Source: a virus (lineage: Duplodnaviria; Caudoviricetes). From it: a DNA stretch of 64,000 nucleotides. Made by a program: the position numbers and the translations under genes. Shown piece after piece: positions 57,559 through 63,999 of the stretch; the first letter of the stretch is position 1, and the number at the start of each line of letters is the position of its first letter. The notes under the pieces are model-generated. The model was not told the DNA's origin. It was given only the letters and a program-made list of their open reading frames with translations, and ran no database searches. The DNA lies in IMG/VR virus record IMGVR_UViG_3300044695_004869. One strand, written 5' to 3'.

Positions 57559-60500
57559 TTATACTAACTCAATCCAATCTTGTGAAGGGTTAAAGTAAAC
57601 TTCGTCAGTTGCAATTGCGTATCCGCAAACTCTCACAATATCGGCGGTTCCCGTTGGTTGAGTGGATGTTAGAGTATCTCCTGCGGTCGATAGGTAAACC
57701 GGAGCACCAATAGTAAATGACCAAGACGTATTTTTAAAGTAACCTCTTACTAACATACCTCTGTTATAAGCCACTGCATTAGTACATATACCAAGTAAGT
57801 TTCTTGATGCAGATGCGCTATCCGCATCTGCCGACAACCAAGTGTTGGATGATGATAAATATCTAACTTGTCCAACGGCGGGACTAAATCCTACATCACC
57901 AATAGATAATAATTCACCATAATGGTCACCATTTGACGCTAATCTTGATACAGGATCAGTGTTGATTGTATAATATCCTGATGTTCTTGTAACTTGGAAG
58001 TGATCTGATATTGTTGCACTTCCCGTAACATTTAGTAGGTTTGTTATTCCATTAAATGTTAAGTTAGGTTCTGAGTTTGCCGAATTTGCGGTTCCATTAG
58101 CGGTTAATATGTTATTATCTGTTGTTGGAGAAATTGAAGTAAATCCTGTACCTGATGTACCATTTGTTCCGGTAGTACCATTGGTACCTGATGTACCGTT
58201 TGTTCCTGAAGTTCCATTAGTTCCGTTTGTTCCATTTGTACCATTTGTTCCTGAAGTTCCATTAGTTCCGTTTGTTCCGTTGGTCCCATTTGTTCCTGAA
58301 GTTCCATTAGTACCGTTGGTTCCATTAGTTCCATTTGTACCTGATGTCCCATTAGTACCGTTCGTACCATTTGTTCCATTAGTTCCATTTGTACCTGATG
58401 TCCCATTAGTACCGTTCGTACCATTTGTTCCATTAGTTCCATTTGTACCTGATGTCCCATTAGTACCGTTCGTACCATTTGTTCCATTAGTTCCATTTGT
58501 ACCTGATGTCCCATTAGTACCGTTGGTTCCATTAGTTCCATTTGTACCTGATGTCCCATTAGTACCGTTGGTTCCATTAGTTCCATTTGTACCTGATGTC
58601 CCATTAGTACCATTAGTACCTGATGTTCCGGCAGCTCCGCTTACACCAGATGTCCCATCAGTTCCTGATGTACCATTTGTTCCGTTAGTCCCTGATGTTC
58701 CGTTTGTTCCACTAGTACCGTTAGTCCCTGACGTTCCATTGGTTCCGTTAGTTCCCGATGTTCCATCGGTTCCGCTAGTACCATCGGTTCCACTTGTTCC
58801 GTTTGTACCATTCGTTCCTGAAGTACCATTCGTTCCTGAAGTTCCATTAGTACCGTTGGTTCCTGATGTTCCGTTAGTACCGTTGGTTCCTGATGTTCCG
58901 TTAGTACCGTTGGTTCCTGATGTTCCGTTAGTACCGCTAGTTCCATTAGTACCATTGGTTCCTGAAGTTCCATTTGTTCCACTTGTTCCGTTTGTACCTG
59001 ACGTTCCATTAGTACCATTGGTTCCTGAAGTTCCATTAGTACCATTGGTTCCTGATGTTCCGTTAGTTCCTGAAGTTCCATTTGTGCCGTTTGTACCAGA
59101 AGTACCGTTGGTTCCATTTGTTCCTGAAGTTCCATTAGTACCGTTGGTTCCTGATGTTCCATTTGTACCGTTGGTACCATTTGTACCGCTAGTTCCGTTA
59201 GTACCTGATGTACCATTTGTTCCGCTAGTACCATTCGTTCCATTTGTTCCTGAAGTACCGTTAGTACCCGAAGTACCATTTGTGCCCGAAGTTCCATTTG
59301 TTCCGTTAGTACCTGAAGTCCCATTGGTTCCATTTGTTCCTGAAGTTCCGTTTGTACCACTTGAACCATTCGTTCCGTTAGTACCTGAGGTTCCATTGGT
59401 TCCATTTGTACCATTTGTCCCCGAAGTCCCGTTTGTACCACTTGATCCGTTTGTTCCTGAAGTTCCATTTGTTCCATTCGTACCGCTAGTTCCATTTGTT
59501 CCTGACGTTCCATTTGTACCGTTTGTTCCTGACGTTCCATTTGTTCCGCTAGTTCCATTAGTACCATTTGTTCCCGAAGTTCCATTTGTTCCATTCGTAC
59601 CGCTAGTTCCATTTGTTCCTGACGTTCCATTTGTACCGTTTGTTCCTGACGTTCCATTTGTTCCGCTAGTTCCATTAGTACCATTTGTTCCCGAAGTTCC
59701 GTTAGTTCCGCTAGTACCATTTGTTCCATTCGTACCTGAAGTACCATTAGTGCCATTAGTCCCATTCGTACCCGAAGTTCCATTTGTTCCTGACGTTCCA
59801 TTCGTACCATTTGTTCCTGAAGTCCCATTAGTTCCACTTGAACCATTTGTTCCATTCGTACCTGAAGTACCATTAGTACCATTAGTCCCATTCGTACCCG
59901 AAGTTCCATTTGTTCCTGACGTTCCATTCGTACCATTTGTTCCTGACGTTCCATTCGTACCATTTGTTCCTGAAGTCCCGTTAGTTCCAGATGTTCCGTT
60001 CGTACCTGAAGTCCCGTTAGTTCCATTTGTTCCACTAGTACCATTCGTACCTGATGTACCATTAGTACCGTTGGTACCACTTGAACCATTTGTTCCTGAG
60101 GTACCATTAGTCCCATTTAAACCACTTACACCTGAAGTTCCGTTAGTTCCAGATGTTCCATTTGTTCCGCTAGCACCATTTGTCCCGTTGGTCCCTGAAG
60201 TTCCATTCGTACCCGATGTACCATTAGTTCCGCTAGTACCGTTCGTACCATTAGTTCCGCTAGTACCGTTCGTTCCGTTAGTTCCGTTAGTACCGGATGT
60301 TCCATTAGTACCTGAAGTTCCATTAGTACCATTTGTTCCTGATGTCCCATTTGTTCCTGATGTTCCATTTGTCCCGTTAGTACCCGAAGTTCCATTAGTT
60401 CCATTAGTTCCTGAAGTTCCATTCGTTCCGCTAGTTCCATTTGTACCTGATGTTCCATTCGTTCCGTTTGTACCTGAAGTTCCATTTGTACCTGATGACC

Positions 60501-63500: not shown

Positions 63501-63999
63501 TGGTCCCGCTCGTACCATTTGTTCCATTTGTACCTGAAGTACCATTGGTTCCGTTAGTTCCTGAAGTTCCATTCGTACCTGAAGTACCATTTGTCCCTGA
63601 TGTCCCGTTAGTTCCATTCGTTCCGTTTGTACCTGAAGTACCATTAGTTCCGTTCGTACCACTTGTACCATTCGTACCGCTAGTTCCATTTGTACCATTA
63701 GTTCCATTCGTTCCGTTTGTACCTGAAGTTCCATTTGTACCATTAGTACCGTTTGTACCATTGGTTCCTGAAGTTCCGTTGGTTCCACTTGAACCATTAG
63801 TTCCGTTCGTTCCGCTCGTACCGTTTGTTCCATTTGTTCCTGACGTTCCATTAGTTCCGTTAGTACCATTTGTTCCCGATGTTCCGTTCGTACCGCTAGT
63901 ACCGTTTGTTCCATTCGTACCGCTAGTACCATTAGTTCCGTTTGTACCTGAAGTACCGTTAGTCCCATTTGTTCCTGAAGTTCCATTAGTACCCGAAGT
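57559..63999 (-). CDS. Giant collagen-like (Gly-Thr-Asn/Ser)n fibre with C-terminal DUF2190/cement-like domain; partial, runs off right edge (>2147 aa)
   Basis: Same frame as the track ORF 57559..57837, which begins at the first in-frame TTG. Hand-translation at 58141, 58621, 60061-60180, 62041 and 63961 gives GTN/GTS with no stops. C-terminus ADA..LLGI...[16 protein letters not shown]...VCGYAI..VYFNP. Confidence 0.85.
58150..63999 (-). repeat. 9-nt-period coding tandem repeat (Gly-X-Y x650)
   Basis: Gly codons at 58150+9k at every position checked (58627, 60121, 62047, 63964, 63991). Confidence 0.95.

Follow-up and report, generated by a model that had tools for sequence, protein, structure and literature searches.

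A proline-free collagen-like fibre gene with at least 650 consecutive Gly-X-Y triplets in an uncultured phage, and the TibC/Aah-type enzyme encoded beside it

How might a very long collagen-like chain be held together when it has no proline and almost no charge? This question is raised by a 64,000-nt stretch of DNA from a tailed phage (Caudoviricetes; IMG/VR record IMGVR_UViG_3300044695_004869), which in its whole length is called the window below. Its end carries, on the minus strand, the 3' 6.4 kb of a fibre gene (57559..63999), which is dominated by Gly-Thr-Asn (GTN) and Gly-Thr-Ser (GTS) triplets. According to reviews, the collagen triple helix owes its stability mainly to imino acids and to charge pairs (PMC13138384), and K-G-E/D salt bridges were proposed as a folding code for all domains of life and viruses (PMC11923368). 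Starting from the gene, its frame and its family, from the modelled fold and trimer of its tip, and from the identity and synteny of the adjoining enzyme, we infer that the protein forms a sugar-stabilised, triple-helical trimeric fibre, brought into register by a C-terminal knob, attached by its N-terminus and used as a tether or in host recognition. We put the probability of this reading at roughly 0.55.

The minus-strand frame is open at the window edge, and translates into 2,146 residues without an internal stop until it ends at the stop codon 57559-57561. A script found in it one single-phase run of exactly 650 Gly-X-Y triplets (58144..63993, read from 63993 to 58144), and the Pfam family PF01391 (Collagen) matched it with 295-317 bits (cut-off 27.2). 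The array contains 433 GTN, 192 GTS, 14 GSS, 4 GTD and 2 GVS triplets, and one each of GAS, GLN, GAA, GTT and GTG. They are laid out as blocks of one to five GTN broken up by GTS, thus Ser, which occupies the Y position in 208 of the 650 triplets (~32%), is spaced by one to five GTN triplets. Among the 1,950 residues of the array there are four Asp, and no Pro, Lys, Glu or Arg. These counts bear out an earlier note on this DNA, made from the letters of the sequence, which had claimed at least 650 collagen-type triplets with no Pro and almost no charge: there is no in-frame stop or phase break in the window, and the rare variants mentioned in that note (GVS-GAA, GVS-GLN, GAS, GSS, GTD) can each be found and none of them leaves the phase. 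The MELQEQ open reading frame (ORF), which it had recognised as lying in the wrong frame, is located at 60126-63986 on the minus strand. The gene is not hidden, as had been thought, because PF01391 detects it and the gene calls of both JGI and NCBI give a 3,747-amino-acid (aa) protein. The word "uninterrupted" holds inside the window but not for the whole protein, which is broken by a 165-aa globular knot (read in contig L005, see below).

The Gly-X-Y frame is the frame under purifying selection, and this selection is strong on the Gly phase. Positions 1-2 of the Gly codon are GG in 650/650 triplets, while the third position is nearly saturated (GGA 334, GGT 252, GGG 53, GGC 12). All four Thr codons are used in the array, both codon families encode Ser at the Y position (163 TCN and 60 AGY), and there are 77 distinct 9-nt units. 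Concerted evolution would homogenise the third positions too, their diversity therefore speaks for purifying selection at the amino-acid level. The conserved globular domain and the stop codon, which are reached in the same frame, also mark the Gly-X-Y frame as the selected one; the plus-strand frame over the array reads as VP repeats. The repeat has a GC content of 44% vs ~30% across the AT-rich window. The array has no higher-order periodicity, the autocorrelation of Ser being weak past lag 1. A beta-solenoid and a polyglycine-II bundle were considered as alternative folds and rejected, on account of the missing higher-order Ser periodicity and the missing turn-forming breaks.

The array in the window is the 3' end of a structural gene of ~11.3 kb. 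Look-up of the 232-aa protein encoded downstream of the fibre gene led to two contigs, L005 (JGI) and L006 (NCBI), which align with the window over 7,151 nt with one mismatch and two gaps (45 and 54 nt, both whole numbers of triplets). In these contigs the fibre gene is called as 3,747 aa, its 5' 418 codons being outside the DNA that was read; the window version would be longer by 33 residues (~3,780 aa). As read in L005, the order is at least 287 triplets, the 165-aa globular domain, 703 triplets and a 194-aa C-terminal domain. The C-terminal run of the window version has ~714 triplets and the knot is ~64 triplets past the window edge, thus 650 is a lower bound, set by the edge that cuts the run. 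The first collagen-like segment is probably ~400 triplets long. The knot gave no Pfam match. Related strains show the same building plan with different numbers: L007 (ENA, ~90% identical) has an equal knot and then a 650-triplet segment, L008 (95% identical) has 793 uninterrupted triplets and no knot in a protein of 2,625 aa, and in L009 an unbroken run of at least 1,090 triplets, with Gly in 1,090/1,090, reaches the end of the contig. A word-index search of a protein collection with the C-terminal region of the 2,625-aa homologue gave no match, giant low-complexity proteins of this kind seeming to be absent or filtered out there. Where strains differ by an indel, its length is nearly always a multiple of 9 nt (11/13, plus one pair of 3-nt gaps). 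With the standard collagen rise of 0.29 nm per residue, the C-terminal segment would measure ~0.6 micrometre, and ~1,110 triplets ~0.95 micrometre, if the chain is a fully extended triple helix, a condition that applies also to the ~560 nm given in the earlier note.

It could be asked whether these lengths are real, or whether short-read assembly has expanded, collapsed or mis-joined the array of an otherwise genuine gene. We regard such an artefact as improbable. Near-identical phages were indeed assembled at 2,625, 3,747 and ~3,780 aa, contigs often end inside the repeat, and both gaps between L005 and the window, like all differences between the two, are confined to 58.4-58.6 kb, where the perfect repeats are longest; an exact repeat of 152 nt, the longest in the array, falls there. 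On the other hand, 99.6% of the 141-mers of the array are unique. L005/L006 and the window agree across 6.4 kb of repeat bar a single mismatch, the 90% identical L007 shows an equal architecture with its 650-triplet segment, and relatives from many samples and pipelines came out independently at 2,400-4,376 aa. The region turned up in lake-water metagenomes, in no fewer than 24 runs. The Logan k-31 contigs break into fragments within the repeat and show its presence, not its order; a search for long reads found none, and no nanopore run was listed. We consider the gene and the order of magnitude of the array solid, the exact copy number not. In one freshwater run (X24), the summed contig depth over window positions 58006-64000 reached, in the repeat, up to ~300x that of the flanks, and there were many alternative joints, so that many related arrays co-occur in that sample.

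The array is followed by 194 non-repetitive residues and then by the stop codon (57562..58143, minus strand). This neck and knob, a predicted trimerisation knob or fibre tip, was modelled by AlphaFold2 with a mean predicted local distance difference test (pLDDT) score of 82.7, and the model has the fold of the trimeric capsid decoration proteins. VIA-align gave Z scores of 9.9 for the decoration protein of HFTV1, 9.7 for Pam3, 9.2 for Adjutor and 8.9 for XM1 (111-130 aligned residues), and 5.7 for the base of the phi29 head fibre; Foldseek found the same decoration-protein targets with weak E-values. When three copies of residues 1860-2146 were modelled as a homotrimer, the interface score ipSAE (interaction prediction score from aligned errors) was 0.78 vs 0.00 for the best of three controls. 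On calibration, the 0.78 mark was reached by 21/30 solved homo-pairs and by 0/23 single chains. The model thus supports the C-terminal knob as a trimerisation module. With regard to the triple helix it is neutral.

To see how this fibre compares with its relatives, metagenomes were scanned with a 102-aa protein encoded upstream of the fibre gene, and the best 80 of 170 relatives were read. In most of these 80 the next gene after the 102-aa gene encodes a proline-free collagen-like protein, and some loci have two or three collagen-like genes in tandem. The shafts are built from GT(N/S/D) or GS(S/T) triplets, contain zero to three globular knots and are proline-free. Complete genes in the fetched loci encode 702-3,057 aa, and gene calls include proteins of 3,371, 4,110 and up to 4,376 aa. 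An N-terminal domain of 52 aa is conserved in 16 family members, whereas the C-terminal domains belong to at least five unrelated types. The 52-aa domain has no Pfam match; tblastn gave weak matches to structural proteins of Cellulophaga phages and of cyanophage S-TIM5. Host-recognition fibres that are anchored by the N-terminus usually combine a constant N-terminal part with C-termini that can be exchanged, which is why we think of the 52-aa domain as the probable virion anchor. Two short members (L058:2620-4770 and L059:1895-4000) have 61-66 triplets and a C-terminal region of 467 aa, in which a globular domain is followed by four to five Cys-rich repeat modules (CC..P...E; GxCWE), a different fibre tip. 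The 102-aa protein itself (e.g. L008:83-391), whose gene is located past the right edge of the window and always precedes the collagen-like one, has 18 invariant columns across the 80 related loci, including C21, C28, C66 and C74. Its model is a generic sandwich of the immunoglobulin/fibronectin type III (Ig/FN3) kind with a disordered tail (pLDDT 67.5), and searches yielded no specific structural match and none that points to a function. The protein may serve as an adaptor or as an assembly factor.

The fold of the knob also suggests the opposite orientation, namely a head fibre, in which the C-terminal domain would sit on the three-fold sites of the capsid, with the shaft pointing outward and the N-terminal domain free, so that the capsid would look hairy. 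In such an arrangement the domain would be a capsid occupant just like the decoration proteins and the base of phi29 gp8.5. In the structure comparison of this domain, the 28 best matches, the phi29 base among them, are all decoration, cement or triplex proteins, and the Pfam family PF09956 (Phage_cement_2) matched 11/42 homologues at E-values up to 0.01 (best 1.7e-7), but the window protein itself scored below the cut-off (18.8 vs 24 bits). Close relatives keep the N-terminal domain and replace the C-terminal one by others, of at least four unrelated folds, which is what one expects from a distal tip and not from a capsid anchor. The domain is common to 6,950 representative clusters; the proteins vary widely in length and almost all carry it at their C-terminus. 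It ends thousands of fibre-like proteins. One of these, to whose end it is 44% identical, is a Flavobacterium phage protein in a tail/baseplate module that is called a tail fiber protein by annotation only. Some of its matches in BFVD bear the names "Collagen triple helix repeat" and "tail fiber-like", and a weak profile match links the domain to residues 119-217 of gp82 of the Anabaena phage A-1(L), the C-terminal bead domain of a neck fibre (E 7e-4), which indicates that this fold is also used within fibres. Taken together, we find the head-fibre arrangement unlikely.

Does the Gly-X-Y tract form a triple helix at all? It might instead be a heavily glycosylated, mucin-like tether, largely unstructured or of polyglycine-II type, whose periodicity is a consequence of the expansion of a 9-nt repeat. 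This is compatible with an array that has neither imino acids nor charge pairs, with a trimer model that shows no confident inter-chain contacts in the repeat, and with neighbouring genes that encode Thr/Pro mucin-like linkers and many glycosyltransferases. A mucin-like tether would, however, not require a strict Gly phase, and Gly is invariant in the 650 triplets of the window and in the at least 1,090 of L009 in spite of nearly saturated synonymous sites. Indels between strains remove or add essentially whole triplets, the shaft is flanked by a domain that was modelled as a trimer, and the higher-order periodicity or turn-forming breaks which a polyglycine-II bundle or a beta-solenoid would need are absent. 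We therefore consider an unwound tether quite unlikely, and return to the sugar-stabilised collagen-like trimer.

The candidate for the enzyme that would provide the sugar is encoded on the opposite strand, convergent on the fibre operon (53866..56814, plus strand). It is a 982-aa tri-domain protein in which, by Pfam and NCBIfam matches, a GT4-like glycosyltransferase, a TibC/Aah-type protein O-heptosyltransferase and an FkbM methyltransferase are fused. Residues 413-752 match the NCBIfam equivalog TIGR04414 with 287.4 bits (cut-off 200), and the central domain matches the TibC structure PDB 4rb4 with an E-value of 1e-65. Residues with catalytic, iron-finger and sugar-binding roles are known in TibC (PMC4358343). 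In the alignment to 4rb4 the catalytic Asp110 and the four Cys of the iron finger (339, 342, 358 and 370) are conserved, and of the sugar-binding residues Thr226, Lys230 and Trp305 are kept. Arg286 is replaced by Val, with a Lys one position earlier, and Gly occupies the position of Pro300, which in TibC determines the stereoselectivity for heptose. Because of these two replacements the donor sugar may differ from that of TibC.

The position of this gene is conserved. In all seven lineages for which downstream DNA was available (7/7, by tblastn), the tri-domain gene, or the visible part of it, is located directly downstream of the last collagen-like gene and in convergent orientation, whatever the type of the C-terminal domain of the fibre (L002/3, L005-8, L038, L042, L050, L058/59, L087/91). 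No autotransporter of the AIDA-I/TibA type was seen near the tri-domain enzyme, its conserved neighbour in 7/7 lineages being the collagen-like gene. Among 50,697 phage records, a TibC-like domain was limited to three uncultured huge phages and one cultured phage, Mel-JY01 of Microcystis. The latter (PP395634.1) also has a collagen-like gene (L109:2-3052, plus strand), open at the start of the record, with a GTS/GSS-rich run of 149 triplets, and, 1.7 kb downstream of it, a 1,226-aa fusion of GT4 and TibC-type domains, which in GenBank bears the label "methyltransferase FkbM". Mel-JY01 is thus a cultured model for the pairing of a collagen-like gene with a TibC-type enzyme. The connection between enzyme and fibre is one of guilt by association; as such, it supports the idea of glycosylation. 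TibC modifies Ser and not Thr (PMC4358343), and the likely acceptor for the TibC-type enzyme is the Ser at the Y position. Nearly all GTN triplets precede G-T/S, so that there are ~430 N-G-T/S sequons in 58144-63993, and Asn-linked sugars may be present at the N-G-T sequons of the GTN-GT(N/S) junctions. An HMW1C-type N-glycosyltransferase was considered as well and rejected, there being no GT41 match among the window ORFs scanned, which were not all of its ORFs.

From these elements the following sequence of events can be proposed. The product would consist of the 52-aa N-terminal domain, ~400 triplets, the 165-aa knot, ~714 triplets, and the 194-aa neck and knob. The C-terminal knob would set the register of three chains, and the Gly-X-Y tracts would then wind into a triple helix of the collagen type, giving a thin flexible fibre of ~1 micrometre overall, with a C-terminal segment of ~0.6 micrometre. 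Since imino acids and charge pairs are both missing from it, the shaft is probably glycan-stabilised: O-glycosylation, for which the Ser of the GTS triplets is the most likely site, would stabilise and shield it. The adjoining TibC/Aah-type heptosyltransferase would add the sugar, and the GT4 and methyltransferase domains fused to it would extend and cap the glycan. Most likely the finished fibre, its C-terminal tip being exchangeable, would act as a tether of long reach or in host recognition. A more specific version would be that we see here a third route of triple-helix stabilisation, in which a homotrimer of ~700 to more than 1,000 consecutive Gly-Thr-Asn/Ser triplets is held by dense O-heptosylation of Ser by the phage's own TibC-type enzyme, perhaps helped by hydrogen-bond ladders of Asn and Thr. 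We offer this version tentatively, as a possibility that has more to prove than the general reading.

Several observations speak against the sugar-stabilised triple helix. Thr at X and Asn or Ser at Y are weak triple-helix formers in host-guest peptide studies. The trimer model has confident contacts only between residues 1953-2141 and none within the Gly-X-Y part, and the cement-like fold of the modelled C-terminal domain could mean that the protein binds the capsid. The variation in repeat number among near-identical phages (2,625, 3,747 and ~3,780 aa), the many contigs that stop within the repeat, and the outcome of the long-read search also count on this side. The array lacks imino acids as well as K-G-E/D salt bridges, the two stabilisers that are known (PMC11923368, PMC13138384). 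The substrate reported for TibC is Ser in beta-helical autotransporter passengers, not in collagen (PMC4358343). One of the four sugar-binding residues of TibC, Arg286, is Val in the tri-domain enzyme, and the Thr/Pro-rich neighbours of the fibre could be the real substrates of the enzyme. The earlier note had guessed that the fibre needs glycosylation, by analogy with BclA and vent-worm collagen. The guess has now gained genomic support from the TibC/Aah-type fusion syntenic in 7/7 lineages, while the two analogies turned out to be loose.

It is instructive to compare the fibre with these and other known systems. In BclA the collagen-like part consists mostly of GPT triplets, with Pro at X and Thr at Y, up to ~90 triplets in all, and its knob is TNF/C1q-like. 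BclA, an exosporium protein of Bacillus anthracis and B. cereus, and the window protein are both Thr-rich collagen-like filaments with a C-terminal trimeric knob, which in our case is a modelled one. BclA's collagen-like region is O-glycosylated, according to PMC8968730 and to Daubenspeck 2004 as relayed in PMC11923368. The window protein differs from it in having Thr at X, Asn or Ser at Y, no Pro, a knob with the capsid-cement fold and a TibC-type candidate enzyme. The cuticle collagen of vent worms, which is of micrometre scale, resembles the window protein in being a very long collagen. In the cuticle collagen of Riftia and Alvinella, glycosylated Thr substitutes for hydroxyproline as stabiliser (Mann 1996 and work on Ac-(Gly-Pro-Thr)10, as relayed in PMC11923368). 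This collagen, however, has Pro at X and galactosyl-Thr at Y, and belongs to an animal extracellular matrix supplied by the secretory pathway; it is not a virion protein made in the cytoplasm.

Collagen-like phage fibres are well known (PMC3368898, PMC8968730), and in prokaryotes collagen-like chains can reach ~2,000 triplets (PMC11923368). The fibres of phages and prophages, for example that of the E. coli O157:H7 prophage (PMC3368898) and the PF01391 proteins of uncultured Caudovirales, likewise have a Gly-X-Y shaft followed by a globular C-terminal domain that trimerises or forms the tip. Those which have been characterised have, however, tens to ~100 triplets with Pro and many charges, whereas the window protein has 650 to ~1,100 triplets and 0% Pro. 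The stability of EPclA was ascribed to Pro at X and to ~22% charged residues (PMC11923368). The bacterial autotransporter heptosyltransferase (BAHT) systems TibC/TibA and Aah/AIDA-I (4RAP/4RB4; PMC4358343) are similar to the locus studied here in that a cytoplasmic enzyme is encoded beside a highly repetitive, Ser-rich adhesin-like protein. The window enzyme differs from TibC and Aah by its fusion to GT4 and FkbM domains, its collagen-like neighbour, the absence of an autotransporter, and the Arg286 to Val and Pro300 to Gly replacements. The neck fibre of the Anabaena myophage A-1(L) (gp82/gp81/gp80; PDB 8KEG; PMC10966104) is also a long flexible accessory fibre with trimeric beads on a freshwater myophage, but it measures ~100 nm and consists of ~16 globular trimers arranged head to tail, without a collagen-like shaft. 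The phi29 head fibre gp8.5 combines, as here, a trimeric base of related fold with an extended fibre. In phi29, however, the capsid-binding base is located at the N-terminus of a fibre with a short helical shaft, whereas the domain in the window protein is C-terminal and exchangeable among relatives. A literature search found no description of this proline-free fibre family. It differs from the known collagen-like fibres by the absence of imino acids, the near absence of charge, Thr at X, 650 to at least 1,090 unbroken triplets, and the conserved linkage to a BAHT-type enzyme.

The family is an exception to the accounts that explain collagen stability by imino acids and salt bridges, and it is so over hundreds to more than 1,000 triplets. 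Either there is another stabiliser, glycans being the obvious candidate because a protein O-glycosyltransferase is encoded alongside, or a strict Gly-X-Y pattern is selected for another structure. Jumbo-phage particles reach up to 0.45 micrometre (PMC12619734). If our reading is true, a fibre of 0.6-1 micrometre would be longer than the largest of them and longer than any described phage appendage, and the estimated rates at which large, slowly diffusing phages encounter their hosts would change. The TibC/Aah family would also extend from autotransporter adhesins to virion proteins. Such genes are often called on the wrong strand or in the wrong frame, thus they are under-reported. In Mel-JY01, for instance, the GenBank entry reads the other strand of the collagen-like locus and gives two "hypothetical proteins" rich in Pro (1-651 and 739-2298). 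In four other loci (L104, L106, L107 and L108) the collagen-like gene is split by the callers into pieces of 152, 548, 1,185 and ~1,850 aa, which are probably wrong-frame calls.

As for the phage itself, the window encodes a 1,103-aa tail sheath protein, a tail tube, a baseplate hub, a DNA polymerase and a helicase. Sheath, tube and baseplate hub together indicate a contractile tail. The gene adjoining the fibre gene is also found on contigs of 0.2-1 Mb, which, with the lake metagenome runs, points to an uncultured freshwater jumbo myophage as the source of this DNA. Megablast of 22.6 kb found no near relative among the 50,697 phage records, and an exact-pattern scan of IMG/VR gave no match either. 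The fibre gene is ~39 kb from the sheath and tube genes, and the window contains no capsid gene. No tape-measure protein was identifiable in 1-13112 against which the filament, proposed in the earlier note to be longer than the tail, could be set.

The gene adjoining the fibre gene (56850..57548, minus strand) starts 10 nt past the fibre stop codon and encodes the 232-aa protein used in the look-up described above. It has a short N-terminal part, a mucin-like (TPT)n linker and a Cys-rich C-terminal domain with ~10 Cys, and over its last 83 aa it shares 55% identity with the product of the gene in the same position in L002/L003. A stand-alone gene of the GT9 family (heptosyltransferase-like; 49539..50477, minus strand) adjoins the tri-domain enzyme in L050 and L087/L091. 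Further away, a gene for a member of the GT60 family of polypeptide GlcNAc-transferases (45344-46591, minus strand) was recognised by the Pfam family GlcNAc (E 4e-73) and by phrog_24687 (E 3e-172). It is located directly downstream of the gene for a Thr/Pro-repeat protein (46648-48447) and heads a series of overlapping small genes, several of them without a family match. The Thr/Pro-rich 232-aa and 46648-48447 proteins, together with the GT60 and GT9 enzymes, suggest that glycosylation may extend to several virion proteins. Scattered among the glycosyltransferase genes are those of three LamG/concanavalin-like proteins (48521-53829, minus strand), one with a fibrinogen-C-like stretch, which are probably further adhesin or fibre components. 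Finally, a 634-aa protein (35448-37352, minus strand) combines an N-terminal part matching a protease-like PHROG with a C-terminal phosphatidylethanolamine-binding (PEBP) domain, a combination that is unusual in phages.

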